In this document: positions 3 to 38,282 of the stretch, piece by piece | How the letters are laid out: each line of letters opens with the position of its first letter | How positions within the stretch are numbered: position 1 is the first letter of the stretch | Origin: a virus | Lineage: Duplodnaviria > Caudoviricetes | Direction: 5' to 3' (one strand) | Length of the DNA: 64,000 nucleotides | Virus record (IMG/VR): IMGVR_UViG_3300030012_002750 | Location: 516-64,515 of that record | Made by a program: the position numbers and the translations under genes | Notes under the pieces: generated by a model | Seen by the model: only the letters and a program-made list of their open reading frames with translations | The model's database searches: none | What the model was told of the DNA's origin: nothing

Positions 3-3000
3 TATAGCGGCTTAACACAAAGAGATGCTTCAAGAAGTATTCACGATGAGCGCGAAGATGACAATATGAGTTTAGGTGAAGAACCTCTCATTAACGCGCC
101 AGTTATGTTGCACCTAAAGCGATTGATTGCTAAACACCCCGAATTACAGGAAGCGCGCGATGAAGACGAAAAAGTAAATGGGAGTTTAGAAGATGCTATG
201 GCGGGTATGGATGGCATACGACCCGACATATCGGAGTTTATCGCTAAACCATACAATAAAAACCGATTTGCGCAAGAGCATGAAATCAATGGGATTCATA
301 ACTTATTTGAGAAATATATGCACCCAATAGCACCTACGATTGTAGCAGACGCTAAATTAGCCGGAAGTCAAATTCAACCTAATATCAAAAGACGGAAGCC
401 GCAACCGCGAGTAAGAGTCACAGGTCCTATGACTGATACATCTTTTGAAGATGAAATGAACCAATTAGTGCAACAACAAAAAGAAAACATGAGGTTCAAA
501 GACGATAAGAGATTCAAATATGGTGGTGAAAAACAACAGCGCGCCGCAGAAGATTACTACGACAAATTCTTTTCACAGACTGATATTGACCGTGGGCCAA
601 AAGCCCCAGCGAGTGTGTCGGTAAGAAGGCCACAAACACAAGAAACAAAGGCTTTAGAAACAAAACACAAAGATTTGATGCGAGAATTCAATCTTGATAA
701 AAAAGCCGCTTTTGCTAAGATTCAAGAGGGGTTTAACGATTTCATGATTTCATTAACAGGCAATAAGGCGTTCGGAACATCGGGGCGCGCAGGTAAATTT
801 GGTGCTGAAATAGAAGTAGGGCGAACACCCGACGCGATTACTCCGTCAATGAATGAATTAGGCAGAAGTCTTGGTATTGGTATGCAAGCACCAAACATAC
901 CGGATTTCATCGGTAAGAGGTGGAGGGAAGATGCTAACCCTTTCAGTATGAATCTTAGAGAAGAAATAACAGAACAATTATCTAATGAAACATCTAATCA
1001 AGGTTTTCACCCAACATTGTTAACTGCGATGGGCGAAGATGGTTTGTTAAGCACTTTGTATGGCGACCCAAGAGCATACACAACCGATACTGCTTTTATT
1101 AGTGGCGACCAAGAAGAAAAAGAAACACGCGCTAAAGAAGCACGCAGAAGTGAGAAAGGTGGTGCTGAAACCGAATCATCGTTGATGACACCCGAAGATG
1201 AAATACAAGTCTTGCGCGGTAAAAGAAAATTGACTCCTTCGCAAAAAATACAACAATTAGAGCGACAATTGAACATCGGTGAAATTGACGATTATGATTA
1301 CAAAATGCAAATGATGGCAATGGATTTAGACGGACGACATCTATTAGACCCGGATGCTAAATTAGGAGGTTTAACTGGTGATGATTTTGATGTCAACCAC
1401 CCATTGCATGGTAAAAACGAAGATGATTTGATTGCTTCAACAGATACATTTGTTGATGGTCTAATTGGTATGGGTCGTATAATGCGACAGTTGAGATATG
1501 AAGCATACCAACATAGTGGTGCAGAATCACCAAAAGAAAAGCAAGACATTGATGATAAAATAGCCGCTTTGAAATTAGACGCGGAGAATATTGTTGCATT
1601 TGGCAAACCCCAAGAAGAACGCACCAAAGAAGAAAATACGCGCTATAAAAAATTAGATGCTTTGATGAATGGTAAATTATCAGCATTCATTCCGAGGTTG
1701 ACATCAACAATGAGTTATCAACAAAAATTGCTGAATAATTTAGGATTAAACCCTATTGATATTGTCAACGCCGCGATAAAATATGCAAACGCAGATATGA
1801 CTACAACAGGCTACAATGAAGCATTCACATCTCTATTAGCATCACAAAGAAAAGACGGCACCCTAAACACATACCCGATAAGCCGTTTGTTAAAATATCT
1901 AAAAGATGTTGGATATAGACGCGCTTTAGATGAAGAATATCATGCACCGTTGATGGAGCAGAAAGAAAAATTCCGTAAAAACCATGAAGCGCGACAAATT
2001 ATGCAAAAGCAAAAAGTTGACATCAATGACCCCGACCACGAACACGCCGGAGATGTTGTTCATGATAGCGAAGAATGTCTTGCTTGCCACCCCGACAGAT
2101 TTGGTAATAGAACTGCGAAAGAAGCGTATGCGCGTGGAGTAAGAAAACCCGACTATAAGGGAGGGCGATTAAGAAATGTCAAAAGCCCATTCGCTCATAA
2201 ATCAGTAGTAGTGCCGTCATTGACAGGATATAGTAAAGGCGGTCAAAGTGGTATGTTGAGAGTGGTTGCACCCAAAGGTAGCCCTTCATTAGCCGCTATT
2301 GCTAATCACATATTCCCTAATAAGTATGACATTGATGATTTGTTAGAGCAAGATAAAACAGCACTTGAGCAAAAACGACATCAAAAATGGGAAAAAAAGT
2401 TGAAAGACAAGTTGAAGCGTGAAATCAAAGATGCTGTGATTACAGGAAACCCACGCGCGGCAAACATTTACAAAAAATTCGGACTAAGTAAAACTCTTGA
2501 AAATCCATTAGCGACAGGACCAGCAGGTATGTCCAATAAAGAATTAACAGCCGCGTCATTTTTCTTAAACAATGACGACGCTTATGATAAACACTATGAG
2601 AAGGTAAGGAGTAGGAATTTATTAGCGACTCGCTACAATGCAATAGAAGATGCGCTATCATTCATCAAGGAGTTGACCGAGGGTGCTTATGGTAATAAAA
2701 TAAAAGCGGGAGCATTAGCACAAGAGTCGTATAGACGCGACACATTAAAAGATATGATTTCACAACCATTAAGCGGTATAGAGAAACAACGAGGTGTTAT
2801 TGCGCGAAATGAAATTGAAAAAGCAACATACAAGAAGCAATATGCGCGCTATTTGAAAGAACAAGCGGAGTATGAAAATTTGTTGGCTGAAACCAAGATG
2901 GTGAAATATACAGATGAAGATGGCATTGAGCGCGAAAGACGCGGGAAATACGGTGAACCAGCGCAAGTAGCAATCATCAAAGATATGGGTCAAAAAATAA

Positions 3001-6000
3001 AAAAAGAACACGGTAATATGTTAGCCATTATGAAACAGGCTGATAGAAAAATTGAGAAAGCCAAGAAAAAAATAGATAGATACGAAGACAAAAGTAGCCA
3101 ATCTATTGAGCGCGCAAATAAACTTATGCTTGGTGCTTTTGTTATGGGTGGTGAAGAATTAGCAAACTTTGTTAAAAATCCTAAAGAAAGTAGCGAAAGA
3201 GAAGTTATTGAGAAAGTCTATAATAAATTATACGCGGATAGCCCTTCGGGTGAATACGATTCAATCATAACTGCTGATATGAAAGGCAACATAGGATATG
3301 ATAAAACGCACAGTTTGTCCAAATACAAAGAAGGAAGATTAGGTCAAATGGCTGGAACAGGTATAAGATTTAATATCAACAACAAAGCAATGCCGCGTAT
3401 TAATTCCCAAATGCAATTAATTGCTCATCGTATGAAAAATGGATTCCCACTTAGCGAAGAACAAATTGCGCAAGCCACCGCGATGATGGACGACGCAGAA
3501 AACGCAGATGATAGTTTTGATGATGAAGCGTTAAATGAAGCAATTGCTAATTTATCATTAGAAGAATTAGCCGATGTCAACATGTCGGAGTTAAGACATC
3601 GTCACCACGACTCAAACGAAGATGAGTTGGGGTTGCTGTCCGAAGAAGAAGCGGCGCGTAGAGAGTTGAATTCACACTTTACAAGAGAAGCAGAAGAAGC
3701 AATTGCGCGTGGTGATTTCGCCAGCGCAAATCAATTGATAAGCAATTGGCGACAGCACGCGCCAACATTGTGCGGAACATGCCATGGACATAGATTTGTG
3801 ACAAGAGATGAAGCAAAAACATACTTGCGCCATCATATACCGGAATTAAGAGATGAACCAATGGGAAGTCCGAGGTTTGATAGATACATAGCGGATAATC
3901 TGCGACCACGCGGTGCTTCTTCATTCGCGGGACACGCGATGGCTGATGATATGGAAGATGATGAACATGAACAACTCGCTTGTCCTTCTTGTAATCACAG
4001 CGCGGATTATGTTAGGGGTGGACAATTATGTAATGGTATTTGCTCCGAGTGTGGCGGTAGCGGTATTCGCGACCCCGATGATGAAGCCCACTTGTATGAA
4101 GGTTATACAGACAAAGAAGGAAATAAGATAGATGGTAAAAATCACCACTATACACACAATGGTGCTGTTGACGCGAAGTTTGATTTCCTTAACTCATTAA
4201 TGTTGCAAAGCGCGCAAGCCTCAATTGATGGTCATAAAATGCCAGCGGGTATGTTAGCACCATCAAAACCTCTATGGCAAATGTATGGGGACGCTACTGA
4301 TAGTGGACAGTTTAGAACACTTGAACAATTACGCGAAGCGCGCAAGAAGAAAGAGTTGCCGAAAATAGAAATTGACGAAGATGCCCCGGAGTTCCAAGGT
4401 GTGCCGTCGCGACAAATTGACCCCGCGATAGCAGAAGAGGTGCGTCAAAAGAAATTAGCAGAAAAACTTCTTGAGGAACCAACAAAACCTAAAGCGGAGA
4501 TAAAATTACCTACTGTTCACAACACCGCAACAGAAAAACACAATCAACTTATGCTCGGAAATCATATTGATAAATTAGCGCGAATGGCGATAGCAGGTCA
4601 AGGTAATGCTCCACAGTTCCAAAGTCAATTCAAAGGATTAACAAGCGATGGTGAAGAAATTTACGAACAGGTGCCGATAGATGTTAAACAACAAATTAAC
4701 GATTTAGTTAATGAAATAAAAACACACCCAGCATTCCTCAACGGTGATGTCCACGGCAACACAGAACATCATTTGCTTGAGCAAATACATAAATTGCAAG
4801 AATTAGCGGAAGCACCTTTTGTTGACGACCTAAGCGATGTTGAGGCTGGAAGACCAATGAAGAGAAAAGATAGAAACAAGTTAATTGCTCAAAGGAGAAG
4901 ATTGCCCGTTGATGAAAAGGGCAACATTTCTTTGACAGCCGCAGATGTGTTTGGTGGTAATTCACCTATGACATTTGGAGATTTTCAAGCACATTACCCC
5001 GCGCATGGTCGTATGTTGACTATGAAAGAAATCCGCGAAGGTGTCTTTAAGCCGGGTGCGACACACGCACCAAGCGATATAACCGATGAAGATTTGAAAA
5101 GATTATTTGCAGGTAATAGAAAAGCGCAAGGTGTAATAAAAAGACGCGAAAGAGTCAATGATTATAGCCCCGAAGCGATACAAAGTATAGTAGATGTATT
5201 TGATAAGATAAAAAGACCTATGACTCGTCGTAAGACAACAAACTTGACGAGTTCCGCGTTAAACGATTTGCTTAGAAATTATGGTGAAAAAGAAATGGTT
5301 GGTGAAATGGAAGACCATCATTTGACTTATAGCGATGAAACTATGAAAGCAATTGCTGATAGTGATATTACCAAGAGTAAAGTTAACAATCTTTTGACAT
5401 CGGCTAACGCAGATGGAAAACAACGCCCGTTGAATAGCCGATACACGATGGGTTTGAATATGGCTATACGAGAAATGTGGCAAAAATACGCTATAATGAG
5501 CGCAATGAGTGTATTTATGCGCGAAATTAATAATCCTCTTGAATTCCCTAAGATACCGCAAAGTATCAATCAAAATAACTTTCAAGATTTGACACGCGAA
5601 GATAGTGCATTGTATGAACTGATGCATGACGAAGCCGCGAAACTACTTGGGTATGATGATTACAACGAGTTTGAAAAGAAGTTTAACTTAAAGAAAACAG
5701 CACAGATTACTGGTGGAAGAGGTAATATAATTCAAGAAATTAAACCGTTAGAGTTCAAAGACAGCGTGATGGCGAATGCAAAACACAGCGATGAAGGTGA
5801 ATTCCCTATCGGTTATGAAGAATTAAAAAGAAATGAAGACGGCGAGATAGAGAGTAAGTTTGTTCCTTCTATGACATCAGCAATACTTGAGCGAGCGAGA
5901 AACTCTTTAACAACACCAGCAGACCAACAAATGTATGATGTCATGAAGAAGGTTGGTAATTATCACGAATGTCCAAATTGGTATCATCGCGACACTATAA

Positions 6001-6374
6001 ACAACTTAGTTAAAGGCCAAGAAGGTAAAGAAGATGGATTCGCTAACTTTGAAGAACTTAGACAAGCACACGCTAATAACGCTTTACCGCCGGAATTAGC
6101 AAAAGAAATTACTACATCATTTATGTTAGCATACATGTCACACCCGACATTATCACTTCAAAACCATGATGATATGCTCAAATACGAACATGCTGTAAAT
6201 GAGGGGCGAGCCGCGACACCTCCTGTGCAACCTGCACCGCAACCTGTTCAACAACCTGCACCACCTGTTCAACAACCTGTTCAACAACCTGTTCAACAAA
6301 TGGAATATCCACGCTATGAAGTCATGTTTGGTCGGCCTATAAGAAGAATAGATAGCGACGAAGATTCTCAATAA
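3..6374 (+). CDS. Giant hypothetical protein (>2120 aa, 5'-truncated), charged and helical, with a Cys/His cluster; possible internal virion protein
   Basis: The frame is open from position 3 (YSGLTQRDASRS...) into the tracked ATG at 66, so the true start is probably upstream of the window. Contains CLACH, CGTCHG, CPSC and CNGICSECGGSG motifs and a Pro/Gln-rich C-terminus. Confidence 0.85.
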   Translation, partial: YSGLTQRDASRSIHDEREDDNMSLGEEPLINAPVMLHLKRLIAKHPELQEARDEDEKVNGSLEDAMAGMDGIRPDISEFIAKPYNKNRFAQEHEINGIHNLFEKYMHPIAPTIVADAKLAGSQIQPNIKRRKPQPRVRVTGPMTDTSFEDEMNQLVQQQKENMRFKDDKRFKYGGEKQQRAAEDYYDKFFSQTDIDRGPKAPASVSVRRPQTQETKALETKHKDLMREFNLDKKAAFAKIQEGFNDFMISLTGNKAFGTSGRAGKFGAEIEVGRTPDAITPSMNELGRSLGIGMQAPNIPDFIGKRWREDANPFSMNLREEITEQLSNETSNQGFHPTLLTAMGEDGLLSTLYGDPRAYTTDTAFISGDQEEKETRAKEARRSEKGGAETESSLMTPEDEIQVLRGKRKLTPSQKIQQLERQLNIGEIDDYDYKMQMMAMDLDGRHLLDPDAKLGGLTGDDFDVNHPLHGKNEDDLIASTDTFVDGLIGMGRIMRQLRYEAYQHSGAESPKEKQDIDDKIAALKLDAENIVAFGKPQEERTKEENTRYKKLDALMNGKLSAFIPRLTSTMSYQQKLLNNLGLNPIDIVNAAIKYANADMTTTGYNEAFTSLLASQRKDGTLNTYPISRLLKYLKDVGYRRALDEEYHAPLMEQKEKFRKNHEARQIMQKQKVDINDPDHEHAGDVVHDSEECLACHPDRFGNRTAKEAYARGVRKPDYKGGRLRNVKSPFAHKSVVVPSLTGYSKGGQSGMLRVVAPKGSPSLAAIANHIFPNKYDIDDLLEQDKTALEQKRHQKWEKKLKDKLKREIKDAVITGNPRAANIYKKFGLSKTLENPLATGPAGMSNKELTAASFFLNNDDAYDKHYEKVRSRNLLATRYNAIEDALSFIKELTEGAYGNKIKAGALAQESYRRDTLKDMISQPLSGIEKQRGVIARNEIEKATYKKQYARYLKEQAEYENLLAETKMVKYTDEDGIERERRGKYGEPAQVAIIKDMGQKIKKEHGNMLAIMKQADRKIEKAKKKIDRYEDKSSQSIERANKLMLGAFVMGGEELANFVKNPKESSEREVIEKVYNKLYADSPSGEYDSIITADMKGNIGYDKTHSLSKYKEGRLGQMAGTGIRFNINNKAMPRINSQMQLIAHRMKNGFPLSEEQIAQATAMMDDAENADDSFDDEALNEAIANLSLEELADVNMSELRHRHHDSNEDELGLLSEEEAARRELNSHFTREAEEAIARGDFASANQLISNWRQHAPTLCGTCHGHRFVTRDEAKTYLRHHIPELRDEPMGSPRFDRYIADNLRPRGASSFAGHAMADDMEDDEHEQLACPSCNHSADYVRGGQLCNGICSECGGSGIRDPDDEAHLYEGYTDKEGNKIDGKNHHYTHNGAVDAKFDFLNSLMLQSAQASIDGHKMPAGMLAPSKPLWQMYGDATDSGQFRTLEQLREARKKKELPKIEIDEDAPEFQGVPSRQIDPAIAEEVRQKKLAEKLLEEPTKPKAEIKLPTVHNTATEKHNQLMLGNHIDKLARMAIAGQGNAPQFQSQFKGLTSDGEEIYEQVPIDVKQQINDLVNEIKTHPAFLNGDVHGNTEHHLLEQIHKLQELAEAPFVDDLSDVEAGRPMKRKDRNKLIAQRRRLPVDEKGNISLTAADVFGGNSPMTFGDFQAHYPAHGRMLTMKEIREGVFKPGATHAPSDITDEDLKRLFAGNRKAQGVIKRRERVNDYSPEAIQSIVDVFDKIKRPMTRRKTTNLTSSALNDLLRNYGEKEMVGEMEDHHLTYSDETMKAIADSDITKSKVNNLLTSANADGKQRPLNSRYTMGLNMAIREMWQKYAIMSAMSVFMREINNPLEFPKIPQSINQNNFQDLTREDSALYELMHDEAAKLLGYDDYNEFEKKFNLKKTAQITGGRGNIIQEIKPLEFKDSVMANAKHSDEGEFPIGYEELKRNEDGEIESKFVPSMTSAILERARNSLTTPADQQMYDVMKKVGNYHECPNWYHRDTINNLVKGQEGKEDGFANFEELRQAHANNALPPELAKEITTSFMLAYMSHPTLSLQNHDDMLKYEHAVNEGRAATPPVQPAPQPVQQPAPPVQQPVQQPVQQMEYPRYEVMFGRPIRRIDSDEDSQ
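6219..6299 (+). repeat. Imperfect 12-nt tandem repeat (CCTGTTCAACAA) encoding PVQQ/PAPQ
   Basis: Directly visible; encodes PPVQPAPQPVQQPAPPVQQPVQQPVQQ. Confidence 0.85.
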
Positions 6375-6470
6375 TATCATTTTATTATTACAAAGATAAT
6401 TAATATATTGTTATAATAATAATATTATAATATTGATAAAAAGGTGAATCAATAGACTTATTTATGGTTC
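6372..6470. promoter_or_regulatory. Very AT-rich intergenic tract with palindrome AATATTATAATATT; probable promoter/terminator region for the GTPase cassette
   Basis: The longest non-coding stretch in the window and almost only A/T; TTATTTAT near 6458-6465 precedes SD AGGAGGT and ATG 6503. Confidence 0.5.
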
Positions 6471-6502
6471 GCGCCACGCATTACGCAAGGAGGTTGGTTG
6501 TT

Positions 6503-7021
6503 ATGCAAGAGCGAACACCACAAAATAAAGACGAATTAAGAGTATTAGGGCTAATTTCATTTGTAAGCATACTTGTTGGTTGCGCTGTCGCGGTATTTGA
6601 TGCAGGGCTATGGTTGAAAGATACTTCAACCCATACAAATGCAATCACATATATGATGGGTGCATTCACATTACAGGGAATGGCCTATTTCATTTACAAA
6701 ATGTTGGCTCAAGACGGAATGGACCAACGCGCAATCATTTCAAATATGCAACGGAACATGACGCGACAAATGCAAAGCCAACAAATGCGATTTGCGCAAG
6801 CGCAAATGGATATGGAAATCAAAAAACAAGAAGTGGCATTCGCGAAACAGATGGAAGAATTAGAAAAAGACCCCGAAGTTCAACAATATCTTGGATTGAT
6901 GGGTCTTGACACCGAAGAAGATACCCCACAACATAAAGCCACAGAAAAAAAAGCAATTAAATTAGGCACTAATAAGCCACGAAACGCTGATGGCACTTAC
7001 AAAAAGATAAACAAGGGGTGA
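6503..7021 (+). CDS. Membrane protein with two predicted TM helices and a Gln/Met-rich coiled coil
   Basis: SD AGGAGGT before ATG 6503; hydrophobic VLGLISFVSILVGCAVAVF and AITYMMGAFTLQGMAYFIY followed by a helical segment. Confidence 0.8.
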   Translation: MQERTPQNKDELRVLGLISFVSILVGCAVAVFDAGLWLKDTSTHTNAITYMMGAFTLQGMAYFIYKMLAQDGMDQRAIISNMQRNMTRQMQSQQMRFAQAQMDMEIKKQEVAFAKQMEELEKDPEVQQYLGLMGLDTEEDTPQHKATEKKAIKLGTNKPRNADGTYKKINKG

Positions 7022-7026
7022 AAGTT

Positions 7027-7263
7027 ATGGGTTGGTTATTCAAAACCCCAAGCGATGATGCGACAGAAGCCACGCTACGCGCTTTACATACACAAAATAC
7101 GCTTGATACATATTATGAGCGTGGTAAAGCCTTAGTGTTGTGTATAATTGTTGGTTTTGTATCAGCATTAGGTGTGTCTTGGTTTGAGTATGGCACAGAT
7201 TTTAGCGTTTGGGAGAATACTGTTAATTGGTTCTTAGAAAAAATACGCGGCTGGGTGGGGTGA
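7027..7263 (+). CDS. Small membrane protein (one TM plus amphipathic Trp-rich C-terminal helix)
   Basis: SD GGGGTGA; ALVLCIIVGFVSALGVSWF, then VWENTVNWFLEKIRGWVG. Confidence 0.8.
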   Translation: MGWLFKTPSDDATEATLRALHTQNTLDTYYERGKALVLCIIVGFVSALGVSWFEYGTDFSVWENTVNWFLEKIRGWVG

Positions 7264-7986
7264 TTGGTTGCAACATTCGCTGGAAGCGCACTTATGGGGG
7301 CAGTTGTTTATGGTCGCGAACTATACAACTTCCTCAAACCGCGCAGAATCGGCGTTTATGGACCAACACAAGTCGGTAAGACGACACTTGACCAATTTAT
7401 GAGAACGCCGGGAGAAATGGACGATATAGAGGAAAGGACTATGCACGCTCAACGGTTATTTGGTGGTGGATATGTGCTTCCTAAAGCAAGTCGTAAGCGT
7501 ATTCGCTGGAAAGGAGAAAAAAGAGTAGTGCATTCCGCTGACATTGGCGGTCAACAGCGTTTTTGGAACCTATGGATTGATGATATGGTTGATAGACAGG
7601 TTGAAATTGCTATTTTTATGACTGATACGCGCGTTTTGAAAGGAAATGGTGCGCAAATTATTGACGCGGTGGGTGGTTTTGAGTATCTTGTTGACTCGTT
7701 GATAGAAAAAAGATGGAAATATCGCTCTTTAAAATCAAGATTGAAAGGAAAACGCTACGCTCCAAAGCAAATATGGCTTGTAGCGAACAAAGCCGATGAA
7801 TGGTGGGACGATAATGCTAACATTTTATGGCAATCTAACCGTTTGCGAGAACATAAAGTGTTTGATGCGCACCGCCCAGCCATGCGAAGACTACAAAAAG
7901 CGGGTATTCCGTGTCGTGTTAGCATGATGGCGACTAAAATTGGCTGGAATGTGGAAAAAACAATGATAGAAATGCTAAGTTGGTGA
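7264..7986 (+). CDS. Ras-superfamily small GTPase, Arf/Sar1-like
   Basis: G1 GPTQVGKT, probable G2 Thr (EERT), G3 DIGGQ followed by RFWNLW, strand IFMTD, G4 VANKAD, G5-like MATK; hydrophobic/amphipathic N-terminal extension; TTG start. Confidence 0.88.
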   Translation: MVATFAGSALMGAVVYGRELYNFLKPRRIGVYGPTQVGKTTLDQFMRTPGEMDDIEERTMHAQRLFGGGYVLPKASRKRIRWKGEKRVVHSADIGGQQRFWNLWIDDMVDRQVEIAIFMTDTRVLKGNGAQIIDAVGGFEYLVDSLIEKRWKYRSLKSRLKGKRYAPKQIWLVANKADEWWDDNANILWQSNRLREHKVFDAHRPAMRRLQKAGIPCRVSMMATKIGWNVEKTMIEMLSW

Positions 7987-7990
7987 TAAA

Positions 7991-8875
7991 ATGCTTGGAA
8001 ATACACCCCAAAATGACCTAATGCGCCTTGCCGCACAAACACAGATGAGTCTTGCACAAATGCAACAACAGGCTACCGCACAAGCCGCGATGAGCAACAT
8101 AAGTGAGCATATTGAAGTCCCACAAGTCAATTTTTACCCTTCACAACACCCAAATCCCAAAAAAGCGCGCAGAAAAGACATAAAACAAGCGTATAAACTG
8201 CTAAAACCGACAAAAAGAAGCATTTTTTCGCCGCGAAGGTGGTTATTTGGTGGAAAATACCGATATAATACCAATACAATGCGTTGTGTTATTGATGGAG
8301 CGGATATTGAACACCTTTTACGGCACGCAGGGAACATATATGAGCAGGTAATTGATGAAGAAACTGGTCAATCTTTATGGGATTTATACTTCAAAAACCC
8401 CGTTACAGGGGAGGTTGAAGCCTTTGTAGCGCGTGAAAATGTTACAAGTGGGCGTAAAATGCGCGGAACATACTGTCCCGAACACCTACATTTGTATCAT
8501 TTATTATGTAAATGGGAAAAAGAAGAAGAAAAAGAGCAAGAGGCGAACAACGGAACACTAAGAGCCAAGTTGAGAAAGGGTGTTTCAACGGTTGCTGTGC
8601 CGATAAGTAGCATAAAAAAGAAAGATAACACACCCCCTATATTATCAAAATACGAACAATTCTTTCAAATGCTAAAACAAGACAATATTCCTATCACACA
8701 TCTAACTAATGCCGCGACAGGCATGAATGATTTAGTAATGATTGTCTTTGATATGCGTCAATTTCAAGCAGGGAATAATGCAAGATTGCTATATGATGCG
8801 CTCGCTATCCATCAATCCCAGCAACAATCGGCACCTCTCCCACTACCGACAGAATCAAATGATGGGAGCGCGTGA
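7991..8875 (+). CDS. Hypothetical protein (Gln-rich N-terminus, basic/aromatic patch, Cys/His residues)
   Basis: 294-aa ORF after SD GGTGA; RCVIDG and YCPEHLHLYHLLC suggest a metal site. Confidence 0.8.
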   Translation: MLGNTPQNDLMRLAAQTQMSLAQMQQQATAQAAMSNISEHIEVPQVNFYPSQHPNPKKARRKDIKQAYKLLKPTKRSIFSPRRWLFGGKYRYNTNTMRCVIDGADIEHLLRHAGNIYEQVIDEETGQSLWDLYFKNPVTGEVEAFVARENVTSGRKMRGTYCPEHLHLYHLLCKWEKEEEKEQEANNGTLRAKLRKGVSTVAVPISSIKKKDNTPPILSKYEQFFQMLKQDNIPITHLTNAATGMNDLVMIVFDMRQFQAGNNARLLYDALAIHQSQQQSAPLPLPTESNDGSA

Positions 8876-8884
8876 GGTGGTATC

Positions 8885-9463
8885 ATGGTGTGGCCGTTCA
8901 ATAACAATAATCAACAAAATCAGCAACAAAATGGTGCTTTGAATCTTGGATTACCCGGTGGACAACAACAAGTTGCCGCGCAAGGTCAACAGCAATGGAG
9001 TCAACAACAATATGGCTTTCAATATCAAGCACCTCCGACTGAAATGGAGATACTATCAGCGATGATAACAACAAATCCAATGATAGATAAGTGGTTGTCC
9101 GACAATAATGGCTCCAATATGAATATGTTTGTATCACTTTTGAGCAGTTTAGTCGCGGTATCAGTTAATACTTTACTCAAAGATGCGCGTTTAGTTGAAG
9201 ATGGAGATGGATATAAGTTTGATTTTAGCGGAGTTCAAGGATTACCGACTGTTGATAGCGTAACTATGTCGCAAACTCAATTACTAAACAACGCATCAAA
9301 CAATGTTCAGCAAAAAAATATGCAGTTCCAACAAATGGTTCAACTCGCGAATCAAGGTGTAATGCAAAACATGTTGAACGAGGCTATGGCTGACCCCGGA
9401 TTGATGCAAAATGTCGGCGGTGGTATTGGTTCATTTGTTCGTGGAATAGCCGGAGGTAGATGA
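8885..9463 (+). CDS. Gln/Asn-rich hypothetical protein with Gly-rich amphipathic C-terminus
   Basis: SD GAGGTGG; starts MVWPFNNNNQQNQQQ and ends GGGIGSFVRGIAGGR. Confidence 0.8.
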   Translation: MVWPFNNNNQQNQQQNGALNLGLPGGQQQVAAQGQQQWSQQQYGFQYQAPPTEMEILSAMITTNPMIDKWLSDNNGSNMNMFVSLLSSLVAVSVNTLLKDARLVEDGDGYKFDFSGVQGLPTVDSVTMSQTQLLNNASNNVQQKNMQFQQMVQLANQGVMQNMLNEAMADPGLMQNVGGGIGSFVRGIAGGR

Positions 9464-9464
9464 T

Positions 9465-9698
9465 ATGGATATTGGCTCTCTTTACACCACTATTAGTGAT
9501 ATGACTAACTTGCGTAAGTCTGTTGTTGTTGATATGATTATGGTTCAACTTATTTCTTTGACACTTGGTTGTTTCTTAATTTTGGTTTTCTCCGGCCCAC
9601 AGATGTCCTCAACAGATTTAAGTTGGGTTATAGGTGCTTTATTCATCTGTTTCAGCGCAAGCGGTATTGTTTATCGTCGGCTCGGCCAACAAGGTTGA
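9465..9698 (+). CDS. Small two-TM membrane protein
   Basis: SD GGAGGT; two hydrophobic segments and a basic C-terminus (holin-like topology only). Confidence 0.75.
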   Translation: MDIGSLYTTISDMTNLRKSVVVDMIMVQLISLTLGCFLILVFSGPQMSSTDLSWVIGALFICFSASGIVYRRLGQQG

Positions 9699-9947
9699 CC
9701 ATTTTCCAATAGGGCATTCGCTGTTTTTAAAAATAGTTTTTGTTTTGATAAAACAACCACAAAGACTGCATCTATCGTGGTTTCTTTCGGAGCATGTCAA
9801 GCAAATGTTGTAGCGACGCTCTCTTTCTGTTAAGTCTGCGCGTTGATTTGTGATTAAATCAGCCGCGGCTCGCGAAAGACTCTTAGCGGTTCCTAATGAG
9901 ATTGGAACTCCGCCTATTTTTGGTGCGCGTTTCAATCTCTTTCTCAT
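9639..9947 (-). CDS. Small Cys-rich protein, DUF6171-like
   Basis: Pattern RYNICLTC...RCSLCGCFIKTKT...CPIGKW recalls the viral DUF6171 family; the only convincing minus-strand gene. Confidence 0.75.
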   Translation of the reverse strand: MRKRLKRAPKIGGVPISLGTAKSLSRAAADLITNQRADLTERERRYNICLTCSERNHDRCSLCGCFIKTKTIFKNSECPIGKWSTLLAEPTINNTACAETDE

Positions 9948-9985
9948 GGGAAAGACTCTTTTGCTACCACTACTTGGTCTTTGCT

Positions 9986-10654
9986 ATGGCGGAGCGTATA
10001 TCAAGAGCCTCTTGTAAGTTCTGTCAAGACCCCGACCGCGATGGTATCGAAGAAATGATGAAGGCTGGGTTGATTACTGCGAAGCAATTAGACAAAGATA
10101 AAGGGTGGCGAGAAGGCACCGCTGATAGGCATTTTCGCAACCACATGGGAGAATATCACATGGGTAGTAATAGCGAATGTGGTTTTTGTGTATCTTCAAA
10201 AAGAGAAAGTTTGGAGATGGCGTATTTTAACGCCAGTATGACTGTTGAAGAAATAGCCCAAGATTTGCAAATGCCCGAATCCAGTGTTTATCATCATCTT
10301 AAACATCATCTTAAGCCAGTAGTGCAGAAAGGCGCGGCAGATATTATCATAGTTGAGGCTGGTAAAGAAATGGAGAGTTTGCGAACAAATTTATCGCGCA
10401 TAAATGGCGAATTGGGTCATTTTCTTGACGATGCAGACCGCAATGACCCACAATATGTTCGCAACATAGTATCTTTACACAAAGAAGTTCGCGAAACAGT
10501 CAAAGATATTATGAGAGTGCAAGAACGCGCGGCTGGTAATACTAACGAAACCATGAACGCACAGACGATAAACATACTCAAAGTTGAATTAGCGAAAGAG
10601 TCCCCCGAAGTATGGGCGCGGTTGCGTGGTAAATTGATAGGGGGTGATGAATGA
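9986..10654 (+). CDS. Zn-finger/HTH DNA-binding protein with coiled coil; candidate terminase small subunit
   Basis: Duplicated CxxC...HxxxH units (CKFC..HFRNH, CGFC..HHLKHH), HTH TVEEIAQDLQMPESSVYHH and a helical C-terminus; lies upstream of TerL. The TerS role is inferred. Confidence 0.55.
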   Translation: MAERISRASCKFCQDPDRDGIEEMMKAGLITAKQLDKDKGWREGTADRHFRNHMGEYHMGSNSECGFCVSSKRESLEMAYFNASMTVEEIAQDLQMPESSVYHHLKHHLKPVVQKGAADIIIVEAGKEMESLRTNLSRINGELGHFLDDADRNDPQYVRNIVSLHKEVRETVKDIMRVQERAAGNTNETMNAQTINILKVELAKESPEVWARLRGKLIGGDE

Positions 10655-11940
10655 TGGTAGGTGGTCCCGAAGGTAGCACCGCAGGTATGCGATTTAATCC
10701 TCGTCAAAGTGCAGAAGAATTACAAGACGACTCAAGTGTGGGTCGTGAAGATTCGGAAGAACGCGCACTTCATGATGCTAAAAAGCGTGAGAAACAAGAG
10801 AAACGCGCTAAAATGATGCAAGGTCTTCAACACATGAAGATAAAAATACCACAAAAGCGCGATGATGAAGAAGATAGCGACATGAAAAGACAGGCCGAGG
10901 CCGGTCAAATGTCCGGTCAAGTTGGTCAAAATGAGGCTATTGATGGTGCTAACCCTCGCGGTAGTTTTGGTGGTGGTGCTGGAATGAACATGTTGTTGTC
11001 AACTGCACCGTTTATTGATGATGCTTTTGAGTCAATACGCAAGGCCAAAAAAAACGAGCCGAAATACGACGACGAAAAGCCTAAGAAAACTACTACACTT
11101 GAAACACAACAAGCAAGAGCGCGTGCAAAGAAAGGTAGGCGTAAAAAGAAATACGGTATGAAAGATACTGAAAGCGCGAAAAGAAGTCGTAGCACAAAAA
11201 AGAGAAGACTCAAAGGTGGGAATGTAAGAACACCAAGCATCGCTTCAACGATGTCAGCGGCTCGCGCACCTTATGTTTCATTTGGTTTAATGGGTTCAAG
11301 AAGACCCTCTCCGACAGGACCAAGGTTTTTGACTTTCTCAACAGGAAGAACTCAAGCAAGAACAGCCACTAATCCGCAAAAAAAGGTGGAGCAAGACTTA
11401 CGACAGGCTATGCGTCAAGACACACCGACACAAGACATTACCCCTCCTATACCCACAGTTAGCCCTCAATCAAGAGTAGCACGCGCACCACGCGGTTCGC
11501 GAGATTCAAGACCACACAAAAAAGCACTAAGGCAACCAAGAACTGCCGCAACACCGGGTGGAAAAGAAGCGTCGGAAGCGACTTCTCTTGCTGGTGGTAG
11601 TGCTTCTGCTATGGCCGCGGGCGGTATTGGTTCAAGTGATGCTATATTGGCTTCCGAAGAGTTCTTGCATAAGCGCGCACAGAAGTTGAAATTAGGCATA
11701 TCTCATCGCGACCGTATTGAATATCGTCAATTAATAGACCAACTCAATCATCTATTGCGCCGATTAATGCGCAAAGAGGATAAGTCAATGCAAGGTGCTG
11801 ATGAAAAATCATCACCTAATTCATCGGGTGGTTTAACATCTAATCCAACAGGCGCAACTGAAACAGACCCCGATGACGACGCGACAAGATGGGGCGCGCA
11901 CCCTTACGATTTGTATGTTAGAAGGGGTGGTGTAGGTTGA
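10651..11940 (+). CDS. Basic, low-complexity hypothetical protein (probably disordered)
   Basis: 429-aa ORF after SD GGGGTGA; Arg/Lys-rich tracts. Confidence 0.8.
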   Translation: MMVGGPEGSTAGMRFNPRQSAEELQDDSSVGREDSEERALHDAKKREKQEKRAKMMQGLQHMKIKIPQKRDDEEDSDMKRQAEAGQMSGQVGQNEAIDGANPRGSFGGGAGMNMLLSTAPFIDDAFESIRKAKKNEPKYDDEKPKKTTTLETQQARARAKKGRRKKKYGMKDTESAKRSRSTKKRRLKGGNVRTPSIASTMSAARAPYVSFGLMGSRRPSPTGPRFLTFSTGRTQARTATNPQKKVEQDLRQAMRQDTPTQDITPPIPTVSPQSRVARAPRGSRDSRPHKKALRQPRTAATPGGKEASEATSLAGGSASAMAAGGIGSSDAILASEEFLHKRAQKLKLGISHRDRIEYRQLIDQLNHLLRRLMRKEDKSMQGADEKSSPNSSGGLTSNPTGATETDPDDDATRWGAHPYDLYVRRGGVG

Positions 11941-15336: not shown

Positions 15337-16737
15337 GTGCAGTCGTTATCACTTGAAGCAATTGAGGAAATTGACTTTGAGGTAGCGAAGCGTGATTTCA
15401 AATTTTTCTTTGAAGAAATACTTGGGTTTCAACTATCGTGGCATCACGAACAATGGTTCAACAATCTTGAGTCGCGTAAAAGATATTGTGTTAAAGCGGC
15501 GCGTGACCACGGCAAGTCAACGCTATTTCTTGGTTATATGCTTTGGAAAACAGCGTTTAATCCAAAGACCAAAGCGGTATTGATTTCACACAGTCTTCAC
15601 CAGTCTATACATCACATGAGAACACTTAACGATTTGATTGATAGTGTGCCGTTTCTTGCTAAAATGAAGAAGCCGGATTCTTGGTCAAAGACATTTTTTG
15701 GTTTTGCTAATGGTTCTAACATTAGCGCGAAGTCGGTTGGTGGTGCTATCCGTGGTATTCACCCCGACCTTATTTTATGCGACGACATTCTGTGGGGAAC
15801 AACTGACACAGAACTTGCTCGCGTCGCATCATGGTTTTATGAAGTCCTTGTCCCGACGCTCCACCACACATCAAAACTAATGATAGTTGGGACACCCTTT
15901 ACTCCAACTGATTTATACACAGAACTTGAAAGTCGCGACGGTTATCTTGTTGAAACATATCCGGCTATCAATCTCAAAGGTGAAGCGTTGTGGCCGGAGC
16001 GTTGGGACTTAGAATCATTAGATGCGCGCAGAAATGATATGCCAGCGATAGCATTCGCGCGTGAATATCTTTGTGAACCAATGGACGATGTATCAAGTCT
16101 ATTCCCATCAACCATTCTTCAAGCCGCTAAAGACTCATCGTTGAAGTTGATTGAACGCGAAGTAGGCGACCCCGACGACCAATACTTCATTGGTTGGGAC
16201 CCTGCGATTTCAAGCGACCGAGCGGCTGACTATACTGTAATGGTGGTGCTTCGCCGTCCATCAACTAATCCCGAACTGCTTGAGTTAGTTCACGCAATCC
16301 GTCGTAAGAATATGGACTTCCGCACACAGATTATGGAGATTCAAAGACTCAACGCGAAGTTTAACCCCGATGTGATTGAACTTGAAGCAAACAACTTCCA
16401 GCGTGTGTTTGCGACTGAATTACGCGCAGATACAGATTTACCTATCAAGACATTTATTTCCACACGCCAACGCCGCGAGTCGCTTCTCATGGGTTTGGTG
16501 TTGCGCTTTGAGAAAGAGCAAATCCGTTTGCCGTGGGGTGATGACCGTTCTCGCACGCTGATGTCCGAACTTGAGCGGGAGTTGCTTATGTTTGGTATGA
16601 GCAAGAAAGGTCGGCTTGATAGCATCGGTAGGCACGATGACTTTGCTATTGCTCTCGCGTTGGCGCATTGGGCGACCACGGAGTTCCGTGAGCGCATTGT
16701 GGACTTAGATGAAATAATGGCGGGGTTGTTAGATTGA
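15337..16737 (+). CDS. terL: Terminase large subunit
   Basis: Walker A-like AARDHGKST, Walker B LILCDD, coupling motif VGTP, RNase H-like IGWDPA..DYT and C-terminal HDDFAIALALA. Confidence 0.95.
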   Translation: MQSLSLEAIEEIDFEVAKRDFKFFFEEILGFQLSWHHEQWFNNLESRKRYCVKAARDHGKSTLFLGYMLWKTAFNPKTKAVLISHSLHQSIHHMRTLNDLIDSVPFLAKMKKPDSWSKTFFGFANGSNISAKSVGGAIRGIHPDLILCDDILWGTTDTELARVASWFYEVLVPTLHHTSKLMIVGTPFTPTDLYTELESRDGYLVETYPAINLKGEALWPERWDLESLDARRNDMPAIAFAREYLCEPMDDVSSLFPSTILQAAKDSSLKLIEREVGDPDDQYFIGWDPAISSDRAADYTVMVVLRRPSTNPELLELVHAIRRKNMDFRTQIMEIQRLNAKFNPDVIELEANNFQRVFATELRADTDLPIKTFISTRQRRESLLMGLVLRFEKEQIRLPWGDDRSRTLMSELERELLMFGMSKKGRLDSIGRHDDFAIALALAHWATTEFRERIVDLDEIMAGLLD

Positions 16738-16934: not shown

Positions 16935-17095
16935 AACTGAAAAAAGACAAATGTTGTTGTGGCGGAACTAAAGATACGCCTTGCGTTTGTATGATTGAAG
17001 GTAATCAATGTTCTGCTAAAAAACCTAAATGCCCTTGTTATAGATTAATGGATAAACAAAAAACGACTTTGAAAAAGATGGTGCGCGTAGTATGA
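16931..17095 (+). CDS. 54-aa Cys/Lys-rich microprotein (8 Cys), not in the ORF track
   Basis: Manual translation MKLKKDKCCCGGTKDTPCVCMIEGNQCSAKKPKCPCYRLMDKQKTTLKKMVRVV; ATGA overlaps with both flanking genes. Confidence 0.7.
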   Translation: MKLKKDKCCCGGTKDTPCVCMIEGNQCSAKKPKCPCYRLMDKQKTTLKKMVRVV

Positions 17096-17769
17096 CAGTA
17101 GAAAAAAACTTGAATCGTTGGTTTAAGGAGAAGTGGGTCGATGTTTCTCGTAAAAATAAAGACGGCTCACACCCTCCATGCGGTCGAAGCAAAGCCAAGA
17201 CTTCAAGCAAAGGTTATCCTAAATGTCGTCCTTCCGTCAAGGTATCAAGTAAAACTCCAAAGACTTCCGGCTCTATGTCCGAGGGTCAAAAACGCGCGGC
17301 AACAAAACGCAAGCGCAGTAAAAAACAAGGTGTGGGTGGGAAGCCCACGGTGGTAAAAATGGAATATGAATACATTATGCACGAACCAATAACAGCAGAA
17401 GAGTTAGCGATGATGAACGACGAAGATATAGCGAAAGAGGTATCTTTTTGTGATTGTTGCTCACCGTTTGACATAGCAACTTCTGTATTGAAAGCCAAGA
17501 AAAAAAGCAAGCCATTTCATGGTTACAACCCGAATAAGCACAGTCGTAAAGGTGGGCTAAATGCCAAAGGACGCGCCGCCGCAAAGCGTAAGAGTGGTGC
17601 TAATCTTAAACCCCCTGTAACTACCAAACCAAGTAAATTAAAACCGGGCGGCAAGAAGGCTAAAAGGCGTAAATCATTTTGCGCGAGAATGAGTGGTGTT
17701 AAAGGACCGACCAGTAAAGGAGGCAAATTGACTCCTAAAGGTGCGGCGTTGAAAAGATGGAATTGTTGA
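17092..17769 (+). CDS. Fusion of two small basic phage domains (DUF5872-like and DUF6321-like) joined by an acidic linker
   Basis: N-domain LNRWFKEKWVD...PCGRS...YPKCRPS; C-domain GGLNAKGR...NLKPPV...RRKSFCARM...ALKRWNC. Family names are from recall. Confidence 0.7.
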   Translation: MTVEKNLNRWFKEKWVDVSRKNKDGSHPPCGRSKAKTSSKGYPKCRPSVKVSSKTPKTSGSMSEGQKRAATKRKRSKKQGVGGKPTVVKMEYEYIMHEPITAEELAMMNDEDIAKEVSFCDCCSPFDIATSVLKAKKKSKPFHGYNPNKHSRKGGLNAKGRAAAKRKSGANLKPPVTTKPSKLKPGGKKAKRRKSFCARMSGVKGPTSKGGKLTPKGAALKRWNC

Positions 17770-17770
17770 A

Positions 17771-17893
17771 ATGTTTGAATATTGCGGGTGGTGCTATGTT
17801 GATGAAAGCGTCTATCCGTTCGGGCTATGTAAGAAGTGTTGGATTAAGTATGGTAAACCTCAACCAATGAATGTGAAAGGTGAGGCAACATGA
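17771..17893 (+). CDS. 40-aa CxxC-CxxC zinc-finger microprotein, not in the ORF track
   Basis: MFEYCGWCYVDESVYPFGLCKKCWIKYGKPQPMNVKGEAT; fills the gap exactly and overlaps the next ATG. Confidence 0.6.
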   Translation: MFEYCGWCYVDESVYPFGLCKKCWIKYGKPQPMNVKGEAT

Positions 17894-19281
17894 TTATTGA
17901 TTTATCCGATGAAAATACTTTCATTGATATGATATTGAAAAATACTATACAGGGTGCATCATTTGGTGATGCGCCACAACCAATTAATCAAGGTCAAGGA
18001 CAAGCAAACGCTAATCCAACACCACCAAAGCCCAACGAAACTGGTGAGCAAGAAGAAAAAGACAAAATAAAACAAGTGGTGCAAGAACAACTCAAGCGTT
18101 CATTACCCGATGGAGGTTGGTTTCAATCAATGTTTGGTCGCGGTGCTGGTGATTTAGTTAAAGATTTGAGATTGGCGCGGCGTGAACATAAAGACATGCG
18201 CGATGCTATCGACCACGCTATCGACGCTATTCGCATTGCTAAAAAACAAGAGGTTGAGGCTACCCTTCAATCAATTGAATGGATTGGTAAGCACGAAGAT
18301 ACAGTTAGAAATTTAGGTATTAGTGAGCGTGATTTACAAGCGTTGCGCAAACATGGTGTAAATCGCGAATATGCACTTCGCCGCGCTTGTGTTCAATGGG
18401 AGAAAGCAAATGATATTATCAGTAAATTGCTTTTGATAGATGGGGAATTCAATGATGAACAAAGGCAAATGTGGGTTGACGCACAACAATTAAAAAAGAA
18501 TTCTAAGAAAGAATGGAAAAATAGTTTGCACTCGATTGACAACATCAAAAAAAGTGAAGCGATATGGTTGACTAAAGCAACATCAATACTTGAAAAGCGG
18601 GGTCCGTTATCAGCGAGAGAACTTGTTGGTAGTATGAGCGGAGTGAAAAGTTTAACTACACAGAAATTGAGCGCGCTCTTCAAAATGCATGGAGTTGAAT
18701 ATGATATTGAAAAGATTGGCGCATCATGGGGTATAGTTCGCGATGACACAGTTATTTTCAAAGATGTATGGGCTTACGCCGCTGGATTTCTTGACGCTGA
18801 TGGTTATATTACAATCACTAAGCGTCTTGAGCCAAGGGCTGGGTTTATAGCCACAGGAGAAAGAGGTAAGATGCATTGTGAACAATTACACAAGGCTCTT
18901 GGATGCGGTGTTCTTCAAACAGATTTGAAGATTCATAAAAATAGCAGACGAACGCAACATAGATTACAGTTTTATAGTGAGAATGATTTAAGGAAATTAA
19001 TGAAAGGTTTGCGTCCACACCTCCGAATGAAAAAAGGTCAAGCGGGTGCTGTTCTTGAGTTGCTTAATTTGCGCGGTCGCAAAACTGACATTATCAAATC
19101 TCGACGCGATGAATTGTATCGTATAGTAAAATGGTTAAACTGGAAAGATGTGCCGGACAAGCGTGAAGAATTGCTTAAAGAGTGGAACATTGATGAACTC
19201 GGACTTCATGCGATGTTTAATCGGGATGGCGAAACCCTGCGTCTTCTTGACGACGCTAACCGACTTGTGGAGATGATGTGA
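17890..19281 (+). CDS. Multidomain protein with winged-helix-like region and C-terminal LAGLIDADG endonuclease-like domain
   Basis: WAYAAGFLDADGYITI motif and downstream LRPHLRMKKGQA typical of LAGLIDADG_3-type domains; ILEKRGPLSARELV resembles a winged helix. Confidence 0.8.
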   Translation: MIIDLSDENTFIDMILKNTIQGASFGDAPQPINQGQGQANANPTPPKPNETGEQEEKDKIKQVVQEQLKRSLPDGGWFQSMFGRGAGDLVKDLRLARREHKDMRDAIDHAIDAIRIAKKQEVEATLQSIEWIGKHEDTVRNLGISERDLQALRKHGVNREYALRRACVQWEKANDIISKLLLIDGEFNDEQRQMWVDAQQLKKNSKKEWKNSLHSIDNIKKSEAIWLTKATSILEKRGPLSARELVGSMSGVKSLTTQKLSALFKMHGVEYDIEKIGASWGIVRDDTVIFKDVWAYAAGFLDADGYITITKRLEPRAGFIATGERGKMHCEQLHKALGCGVLQTDLKIHKNSRRTQHRLQFYSENDLRKLMKGLRPHLRMKKGQAGAVLELLNLRGRKTDIIKSRRDELYRIVKWLNWKDVPDKREELLKEWNIDELGLHAMFNRDGETLRLLDDANRLVEMM

Positions 19282-34632: not shown

Positions 34633-34651
34633 AGTAAGGCGGACTGATAAT

Positions 34652-38280: not shown

Positions 38281-38282
38281 AC

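Follow-up and report, generated by a model that had tools for sequence, protein, structure and literature searches.

The stretch of DNA analyzed here (the window) comprises 64,000 of the 64,515 bases of the IMG/VR virus record IMGVR_UViG_3300030012_002750, which is judged to be 61% complete. All long open reading frames (ORFs) of the window are located on the + strand, to which all the coordinates given below refer. At positions 7264..7986 it contains a gene with a TTG start, supported by the ORF list, by 388 homologues and by an AF2 model, whose 240-residue product is, judged from its sequence, a complete small GTPase of the Ras superfamily (P-loop, TRAFAC class) with conserved G1 to G5 motifs. 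The gene forms part of a conserved block in the order tm185-tm81-GTPase-p294-p192-tm77-HTH (HTH, helix-turn-helix). The analysis described below indicates that the protein is a virus-specific variant of an Arf/Sar-like small GTPase, and that its family is closed, virus-only and confined to magrovirus-like marine archaeal tailed viruses.

The TTG start codon of the GTPase gene directly abuts the TGA stop codon of the upstream 81-residue ORF, tm81. Both this start and a translational coupling of the two genes are supported, because close relatives of the window GTPase have an ATG at the same aligned codon and because the stop and start codons overlap or abut in these relatives too. The strings that an initial annotation of this DNA had quoted from the protein were all found in the ORF at the places given for them: MVATFAGSALMGAVVYGRELYNFL (residues 1-24), GPTQVGKTT (33-41), RLFGGGYVLPKASRKRIRWK (64-83), DIGGQQRFWNLW (93-104), IFMTDTR (117-123), KRWKYRSLKSRLKGKRY (149-165) and VANKAD (173-178).

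Motif counts were made on 199 unique sequences of the family, in 196 of which the G3 motif could be parsed. The G1 motif or P-loop is GPTQVGKTT (7360..7386), with GKTT in 198 of the 199 sequences, and the G4 motif, responsible for guanine specificity, is NKAD (residues 175-178; 7786..7797), which is found in 192 of the 199, the other seven having NKxD or, once, NKAL. The G3 motif with switch II corresponds to DIGGQQRFWNLW (7540..7575), in which D93 and G96 are invariant and which is characterized by a Trp at position D+11 in 195/196 family sequences. The G5 motif is MATK (222-225; 7927..7938), followed by IGWNVE; it aligns with SAK/SIL of the reference GTPases and reads MATK or ISAR in the family, and M222, A223, T224, G227 and W228 are invariant in our alignment A2. 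The candidate Thr of G2/switch I lies in E57-R58-T59 (7432..7440) and is assigned by alignment only; R58 and T59 are invariant among the closer members (alignment A2), and the switch I Thr of the Asgard protein GerdArfR1 is the aligned counterpart of T59. In an alignment of 28 members with identities down to 25%, D93, G96, D121, R123, N175 and K176 are invariant and G33, G38, K39, T40, T41 and W104 are conserved in at least 90% of the sequences, and it is for this reason that the motifs cannot be attributed to chance. Because the G motifs and the NKxD specificity are conserved, binding of guanine nucleotides by the viral GTPase is very likely. According to the residue following DxxG, the 196 sequences divide into 97 with Q, 75 with E, 18 with D, 4 with H and one each with A and F, and His at this position is native to Sar1 and SR-beta. 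The switch II Gln emphasized in the initial annotation is thus a property of the window protein (Q97) but not of the family. As this water-orienting position stays polar in 194/196 sequences, GTP hydrolysis is likely.

The AF2 model of the window GTPase, which was built with the 28-row alignment, is confident (predicted local distance difference test, pLDDT, 90.3; predicted template modelling score, pTM, 0.87) and displays the canonical six-stranded G-domain fold preceded by a long N-terminal helix formed by residues 2-24. Relative to Arf proteins, the viral GTPase is about 60 residues longer, and the additional residues are distributed over three insertions. Insertion 1 (residues 60-75; 7441..7488) lies between G2 and strand beta2, corresponds to a 15-column gap with respect to the Asgard Arf profile, and is 14-16 residues long in 23 of the 28 members. 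It is followed by the interswitch hairpin beta2-beta3 (7489..7539; strands 76-82 and 85-93 in the AF2 model), which has a conserved basic RKR sequence on beta2, with K78 being conserved in at least 90% of the 28 sequences. Insertion 2 (149-166; 7708..7761), located between alpha3 and beta5, corresponds to a 13-column gap with respect to the Arf profile, is polybasic and aromatic, and contains a helix (156-164); it has 5-10 Lys or Arg among its ~18 residues in 25 of the 28 members, and 3, 4 and 4 in the other three. Insertion 3 (179-197; 7798..7854), WWDDNANILWQSNRLREH, has the pattern WWDxxAxxLWQ..R..EH, in which W180 and H197 are among the conserved residues, and contributes extra helices (177-190). 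The initial annotation had claimed two polybasic and aromatic inserts, both of which are present, but it had overlooked insertion 3. The basic and aromatic character of KRWKYRSLKSRLKGKRY was borne out by its conservation in the family, while RLFGGGYVLPKASRKRIRWK only partly coincides with a true insertion (~60-75), since AF2 and the profile alignments place S76-K83 in strand beta2. Values for the isoelectric point (pI) of the whole protein lie between 9.3 and 10.2 (11 full-length members computed of 12), with the basic charge concentrated on beta2 (RKR) and insertion 2.

The family is large, and its members were found in viral sequences. A word-indexed search (540 candidates) yielded 388 near-length homologues at E<=0.01, nearly all of 230-254 residues, many of which come from Tara or other marine sources, on contigs of up to ~116 kb. 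An exhaustive HMMER search of 1.84 billion cluster representatives gave 73 matches at E<=0.001; the 14 inspected at the sequence level all belong to the same viral family, as full-length or partial proteins, and the best-listed matches (36-364.6 bits) bear no family names, so that no connection with a named GTPase family was seen. At least 549 stretches in IMG/VR encode relatives (of 596 pattern matches), and a second subfamily, ~32% identical, was confirmed in 140 of 150 IMG/VR pattern matches; the pattern search found no IMG/VR relatives of the divergent members P0165 and P0191. The 50,697 GenBank phage records contain no relative. When 185,579 prokaryote species were searched, each represented by one genome, there were three matches, on 8-16-kb contigs of metagenome-assembled genomes (MAGs) labelled Promethearchaeati, Maricaulis and Parvibaculum, the latter two alphaproteobacterial. 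Because all three short contigs carry the full viral gene order, they would most simply be viral contigs binned by mistake. In these contigs (L083, the 8-kb Promethearchaeati contig, L084 and L085) the viral block from tm185 to the HTH gene is about 55% identical. Of 515 candidates for longer or fused forms, none reached E<=0.001, which weakly suggests that the GTPase stands alone. Automatic annotations label some members as 'GTPase SAR1 family protein' or 'Ras family domain-containing protein'.

Several lines of evidence connect this family with the Arf/Arl/Sar GTPases. Like Arf and Arl proteins, including ArfR1, the viral protein consists of an N-terminal helix and a G domain without a C-terminal tail, and it shares with them DxGGQ with a Trp at D+11, hhhhD..R after beta4, NKxD, and (S/M)A-x-x-G-x-x-V. 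The combination of DxGGQ and a Trp at D+11 is a signature of Arf, Sar and G-alpha proteins, and was also seen here in the Asgard ArfR references. When the hidden Markov model (HMM) of the family was compared with the sequences in the PDB, GerdArfR1 came first (E 6.6e-8), with a match that includes the N-terminal region; the next matches, RecA concatemers, were due to P-loop-only repeats, and these were followed by Arl8A/B (4e-5 to 9e-4), IFT22, Rab33B, Arl1, Arl5, Arl3 and Arf1/2/4. The best PDB profile matches are thus another likeness to Arf/Arl. Structures of Asgard ArfR1 are available as 8OUM and 8OUN (bioRxiv 10.1101/2024.02.28.582541). A second structural ranking, taken over the best 1000 chains of a Foldseek search, placed Arl8b-GTP first, with a score of 17.9 (root-mean-square deviation, rmsd, 2.4 A over 162 residues), followed by Arl1 (17.4 and 17.3), Arf1 (17.4), GerdArfR1-GTP (16.8), yeast Arf1 (16.1), LokiRagO (15.8), Arl2 (15.5) and Rab5 (15.4; rmsd 3.3 A). 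Hence, in this ranking the nearest structural neighbours of the viral GTPase core are GTP-bound Arf and Arl proteins, and on this point the predicted G-domain structure upholds the initial annotation. The only viral structural matches were Rab and Ras proteins of giant viruses. When Pfam was searched member by member at E<=10, Arf was the family most frequently hit among the 28 members (12), followed by Roc (7), MMR_HSR1 (6), EF-Tu (4), SRPRB (2), Gtr1_RagA (1) and Ras (1), and 13 of the 28 touched the NCBIfam model small_GTP. The non-viral ESM Atlas clusters that come nearest are bacterial ones with G domains, and PF00025 is present in 17-67% of their members.

Asgard reference sequences were taken from the Promethearchaeati MAG G002, which has 40 matches to the Arf model and supplied 8 Arf-type, 18 Ras-type and 5 Rag-type proteins, the Arf- and Ras-type labels denoting the best Pfam family; nine references for the archaeal GTPase ArvA came from genomes related to G002, in which they were found upstream of OapB (PF09846). 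Scored against 40/40 references, the viral HMM gave 23.7-26.4 bits for three ArfR1-like proteins and 26.7 for one atypical Ras-type protein, and its group means were 16.2 bits for Arf, 15.3 for ArvA, 9.8 for Rag and 7.7 for Ras. GTPases of the Roc/Era/EngA type were considered as closest relatives, and the structural and profile comparisons do not put them nearest. MglA is absent among the matches listed in the PDB profile and structural rankings, and no Roadblock domain was found in the scanned neighbours of the GTPase gene.

A considerable number of observations weigh against Arf kinship or an Arf-like mode of action. Firstly, the window GTPase matches no Pfam family even at E<=10 and, in NCBIfam, matches only small_GTP (E 0.06); the best E value for Arf (PF00025) among the 28 members is 0.0048, and identity to Arf/Arl proteins is only 13-20%. 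Secondly, the top Foldseek matches in the PDB are Rab27B, Rab1, Sec4, Rap1 and Rac1 (E ~5e-9 to 1e-7), without any Arf preference in that ranking. Thirdly, hhalign scores the viral family higher with the Asgard Ras-type (88.6) than with the Arf-type profile (75.3; 165-166 columns), and both values are far below the Arf-Ras baseline of 200.6. From these scores and the other baselines (Arf-ArvA, 91.9; Ras-ArvA, 87.0) it follows that the viral family is about as distant from Arf and Ras as ArvA is. Fourthly, the position after DxxG, polar as it is, is not fixed as would be expected of an Arf-type catalytic Gln, being E, D or H in half of the viral family. Fifthly, a pI of ~10 is equally compatible with nucleic-acid binding. 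To these points must be added the maximum-likelihood (ML) phylogeny and the properties of the N-terminal segment, which are presented in the next two paragraphs.

The ML tree was inferred with LG+C20 from 46 rows (15 viral and 8 Arf-, 18 Ras- and 5 Rag-type Asgard sequences) and 211 columns; its sampling is without eukaryotic Arf, Arl, Sar1 and SR-beta, without MglA and without the bacterial Arf-like Atlas clusters. The viral GTPases form a clade with 100/99 support on a stem of 1.69 substitutions per site, and this clade is placed beside the Ras-type sequences with weak support (74/36). Constraining the viral and Arf-type sequences together costs only 1.06 units of log-likelihood (approximately unbiased, AU, test, p 0.433), and after the addition of five ArvA sequences the viral clade shifts next to the Rag-type sequences, in a quick tree that came with long-branch warnings. 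Because the placement is weak, the AU test gives p 0.433 and the topology shifts with sampling, the ML trees neither support nor reject Arf kinship of the viral GTPase. A robust grouping with Roc or Era GTPases, which the initial annotation had named as the outcome contrary to its proposal, was not seen, but the Arf grouping did not receive support either.

The N-terminal helix (residues 1-24; 7264..7335) consists of a Gly/Ala-rich hydrophobic 16-mer followed by ELYNFLKPRR. In 15/15 members examined, the first 16 residues are Gly/Ala/Ser-rich and hydrophobic (Kyte-Doolittle value over these residues, KD16, 0.85-1.9), with a hydrophobic moment of 0.01-0.21 (about 0.1) and a mean hydrophobicity of 0.5-0.8. 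In none of these 15 N-termini does a 19-residue Kyte-Doolittle window (KD19) reach the threshold of 1.6 for a transmembrane (TM) segment, the maximum in the window protein being 1.06. Judged by these values, the segment appears to be neither an amphipathic helix as in Arf and Sar nor a textbook TM segment, and the idea that it resembles the amphipathic helix of Sar1 or the membrane anchor of SR-beta was not supported. Unlike the amphipathic helix of Arf/Arl, it is uniformly hydrophobic, and unlike the SR-beta anchor, it appears too short and too weakly hydrophobic for a TM helix according to KD19; also, no SRX, SR-alpha or COPII-like partners were recognized among the neighbours of the GTPase gene with Pfam and PHROGs. 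With regard to membrane binding, a short monotopic insertion of the segment is conceivable, as is its packing, as a helix, against a partner's TM helix. In the alignments, the segment coincides with the N-terminal helices of GerdArfR1, yeast Arf1 and Arl2, and because the structural alignments with myristoylated yeast Arf1 and Arl2 begin at model residues 9-10, it is topologically equivalent to the Arf helix.

Taking these data together, the viral GTPase looks more like Arf/Arl/Sar than like other families on the basis of structure, HMM profiles and the DxGG(Q)..W signature. Among known proteins, the Arf/Arl GTPases with Asgard ArfR1 come nearest, and Sar1 and SR-beta follow. The viral GTPase has an Arf/Sar-type architecture, with a hydrophobic N-terminal helix instead of a C-terminal lipid tail, DxGG(Q/E/D/H), the Trp, and three insertions, two of which are strongly basic. 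We do not file it as an Arf protein, because the Pfam Arf test and the amphipathic-helix test both failed.

The gene order of the block was found in 80 IMG/VR loci. tm185 (6464..7021) encodes a membrane protein with a hydrophobic stretch at 24-52, overlaps the next gene by 4 nt and is syntenic in 78/80 loci. tm81 (7018..7263; 80/80) encodes a small membrane protein with a TM segment at 35-59, and its stop codon abuts the GTPase start. Downstream of the GTPase gene are p294 (7991..8875; 80/80), encoding a conserved protein with invariant C99, C162, H165 and H167; p192 (8885..9463; 78/80), whose Gln-rich product has a weak hydrophobic segment at 80-99; tm77 (9465..9698; 74/80), encoding a small protein with two hydrophobic segments; and the gene for the HTH protein that closes the block (9896..10654; Pfam HTH_5, E 7.3e-5; 80/80). 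Clear hydrophobic segments are thus present in tm185, tm81 and tm77. Within the block, conservation is strongest in the GTPase, with 56-99% identity, while its neighbours fall to 29-60% in the most distant loci. A comparable arrangement exists in the 32%-identical subfamily, where all five loci examined encode, in order, a protein with one or two TM segments, a ~74-residue protein, the GTPase, a ~224-240-residue protein and a ~235-residue protein; the ~224-240-residue protein is p294-like in three of the five (23-25% identity, E about 1e-4).

tm185, tm81, p294 and p192 have no Pfam matches, and neither a structural nor a sequence relative of p294 was found outside these viruses. The invariant Cys and His residues of p294 are held by the motif TYCPEHLHLYH, and C99, C162, H165 and H167 may form a metal site. 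A prediction of the complex between the GTPase and p294 (residues 40-262) gave a score of 0.01 against a mark of 0.32, which is evidence neither way, and no RNA sequencing run is listed for window positions 6400-9800. In some lineages one or two extra small ORFs (65-122 residues) lie between the GTPase gene and p294 (L053, 6710-7317; L083, 3708-3911; L084, 1951-2148; L085, 5767-5964). The HTH gene is followed by a gene (10651-11940) for a very basic, low-complexity protein of 429 residues, e.g. KKGRRKKKYGMKD…KKRRLKGG, without family match, which is possibly an internal or DNA-associated virion protein.

How might such a GTPase function? We consider, with about as much doubt as conviction, that it is an Arf/Sar-type, membrane-proximal GTP switch that works together with the neighbouring membrane proteins as a viral module. 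This view is based on the Arf/Sar-like build, the hydrophobic N-terminus, the basic loops, and the translationally coupled embedding of the gene among genes for membrane proteins, which together suggest that the GTPase probably acts at the membrane. When bound to GTP, the GTPase would be held at the host cytoplasmic membrane by its N-terminal segment and its basic loops, and there it would work with the co-translated tm185, tm81 and tm77 proteins and with p294/p192 as one module. This module would organize or remodel the membrane during infection, for instance at a site of assembly or egress, and GTP hydrolysis would reset it. A role in assembly or egress appeals to us most, since the way in which tailed viruses of archaea exit their hosts is described as uncharacterized, as far as the source consulted states (PMC10791045). 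In a bolder version, which we regard as rather doubtful, magroviruses would carry their own Arf/Sar-like machine, in which the GTPase is joined by three small membrane proteins and by a partner that binds metal, and this machine would build or cut the host membrane for assembly or release in archaea lacking ESCRT.

The most serious alternative, somewhat less probable than a membrane switch, is that the protein is a Ras-superfamily GTPase without special Arf kinship. Its lineage would be an old viral one that evolves fast, and its Arf-like traits would be due to convergence or inherited from an ancestor. Such a protein could, in soluble form, regulate virion morphogenesis or the handling of DNA, its basic loops binding nucleic acid or parts of the capsid or terminase. 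The ambiguous phylogeny (weak placement, AU test and shift upon adding ArvA), the slight hhalign preference for Ras-type references, the Rab and Ras proteins at the top of the Foldseek ranking, and an N-terminal segment that misses both the amphipathic and the TM values would all agree with this, as would the high pI with the polybasic loops and the position of the gene, which belongs to the genome half concerned with morphogenesis and precedes the large terminase gene by ~7 kb. However, it would leave aside the HMM scores, which favour ArfR1 and Arl8, the nearly invariant Trp at D+11, and the tight and persistent setting of the GTPase gene among those for small membrane proteins.

It is improbable, though conceivable, that the viral GTPase is a counterpart of ArvA that drives or hijacks the formation of host extracellular vesicles. 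ArvA (OapA), an Arf-like small GTPase possessing an N-terminal helix, drives the formation of vesicles in Haloferax (PMC10927574), and the viral profile aligns with it over the N-terminal helix, the P-loop and the 'EIP.E.RT' stretch of switch I; the ArvA references reach the mean of 15.3 bits mentioned above. However, the hhalign alignment with ArvA covers only 50 N-terminal columns (score 42.8), as compared with 165-166 columns for Arf and Ras; ArvA has DMPGI in its G3 region and lacks the Arf-type Trp; and no Pfam domain of the OapB/ArvB or ArvC type was found in the scanned neighbours. In addition, Thermoplasmatota and Poseidoniales are not named in the distribution of ArvA given in the part of PMC10927574 consulted. 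That the protein would be a catalytically dead scaffold that still binds nucleotide (a pseudo-GTPase) is very unlikely, since the variation at the catalytic Gln position nearly always retains a Q, E, D or H that could still orient water, and the other G motifs are all strongly conserved.

A membrane-proximal GTP switch of the Arf/Sar type can be compared with several known systems. ArvA (PMC10927574) is the closest functional analogue in Euryarchaeota: it is likewise a euryarchaeal small GTPase with an N-terminal helix, encoded in an operon with two small partners. It differs in its G3 region and its partners, its profile similarity is limited to the 50 columns, and it is cellular whereas the viral family is virus-only. 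The closest precedent for archaeal Arf GTPases borne by a mobile element is a mobile-element-like region of Atabeyarchaeia that encodes Arf-type small GTPases (PMC11529989, seen in part). Unlike the viral family, the Atabeyarchaeia proteins are located in a region of an Asgard chromosome and, in the tree published with them, cluster with Asgard and eukaryotic Arf; the viral family has diverged much further and belongs to the core genes of a lineage of tailed viruses. The Rab, Ras and Ran proteins of giant eukaryotic viruses, such as the mimivirus Rab (PDB 5XC5), are clear recent captures from eukaryotes, unlike the viral family described here, which has no close cellular source and infects archaea. 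A description of the viral GTPase was not found in the magrovirus and archaeal-virus literature searched, which included some supplements, those of PMC5434244 being outside that search. As a separate observation, when 301 genomes were sampled from the phylum to which the Asgard MAG belongs, 89 of them (G002 and 88 others) were found to have OapB/ArvB (PF09846). Fourteen loci were inspected, and all but one (L133) have an ArvA-like GTPase immediately upstream. This share of genomes exceeds the 8 of 183 Asgard genomes for which ArvA is reported in the part of PMC10927574 consulted, although the criteria differ.

The virus itself is a tailed virus. Pfam and PHROGs identify, in the window, the large terminase (15337-16737), the portal (19278-21122), a prohead protease (28200-29651), an HK97-type major capsid protein (29651-30799), the tail tube (34616-36568), the tape measure (38274-39995) and fibre-like proteins; no tRNA was found in the window. 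Among the 50,697 GenBank phage records, the capsid protein matches archaeal tailed viruses only, the best matches being those of the Haloarcula viruses HCTV-1, HVTV-1 and HCTV-5 (34-35% identity), and the same similarity pattern is reported for magrovirus capsids in the portion of PMC5434244 consulted. A 98% complete relative of 102,931 bases (G001), whose GTPase is 94% identical to that of the window, has genes for a DNA polymerase of family B and for a chaperonin of the Cpn60/TCP1 type (E 4.6e-118); the Pfam MCM model has no match in this relative, and MCM is reported in all magrovirus genomes by the magrovirus paper, as far as the part consulted states. Because of the capsid pattern and the polymerase and chaperonin of this relative, we regard the virus as magrovirus-like, so that a host other than an Asgard archaeon is plausible; from the literature, we infer that the host belongs to the Poseidoniales. 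Thus, of the earlier proposal of a eukaryote-like trafficking GTPase in a virus of non-Asgard archaea, the virus part stands, as a magrovirus-type archaeal tailed virus, but Arf membership is not supported, given the lack of a Pfam match and the ambiguous tree.

Some other genes of the window should be mentioned. There are three giant ORFs, at 66-6374 (2102 residues), 22213-28182 (1989 residues) and 41163-56651 (5162 residues). The 2102- and 1989-residue proteins match no Pfam family, and the former ends in a PxQ-rich repeat (…PPVQPAPQPVQQPAPPVQQPVQQPVQQ); in the 5162-residue protein, encoded downstream of the tape measure gene, the only domain recognized is Laminin_G_3/ConA-like and lies close to the N-terminus (E 5.9e-10). 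Between the genes for the tail tube and the tape measure lies one for a 142-residue protein (37276-37704) with a clear SAP domain (Pfam E 5.4e-15), which is a motif for DNA binding that is familiar chiefly from eukaryotes. Two genes between those for the terminase and the portal (17092-17769 and 17890-19281) encode proteins of 225 residues, with DUF6321 and DUF5872, and of 463 residues, with an HNH-endonuclease region (PHROG E 1.5e-11), respectively.

In summary, these viruses contain an abundant, conserved and so far unexplained GTPase module, for which the bolder evolutionary reading is not established. The viral GTPase adds a data point on Arf-like switches outside eukaryotes and Asgard archaea, although direct Arf kinship was not established by our tests. 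If the idea of an Arf/Sar-like membrane machine is true, it would be the first membrane system driven by a small GTPase that is encoded by a prokaryotic virus, as well as a candidate for the way in which tailed viruses of archaea leave the cell, and it would imply that Arf-like switches have circulated in the archaeal virosphere outside Asgard hosts. A conserved, virus-only Arf/Sar-like GTPase that is fixed among membrane proteins provides a concrete handle on the egress of archaeal viruses.

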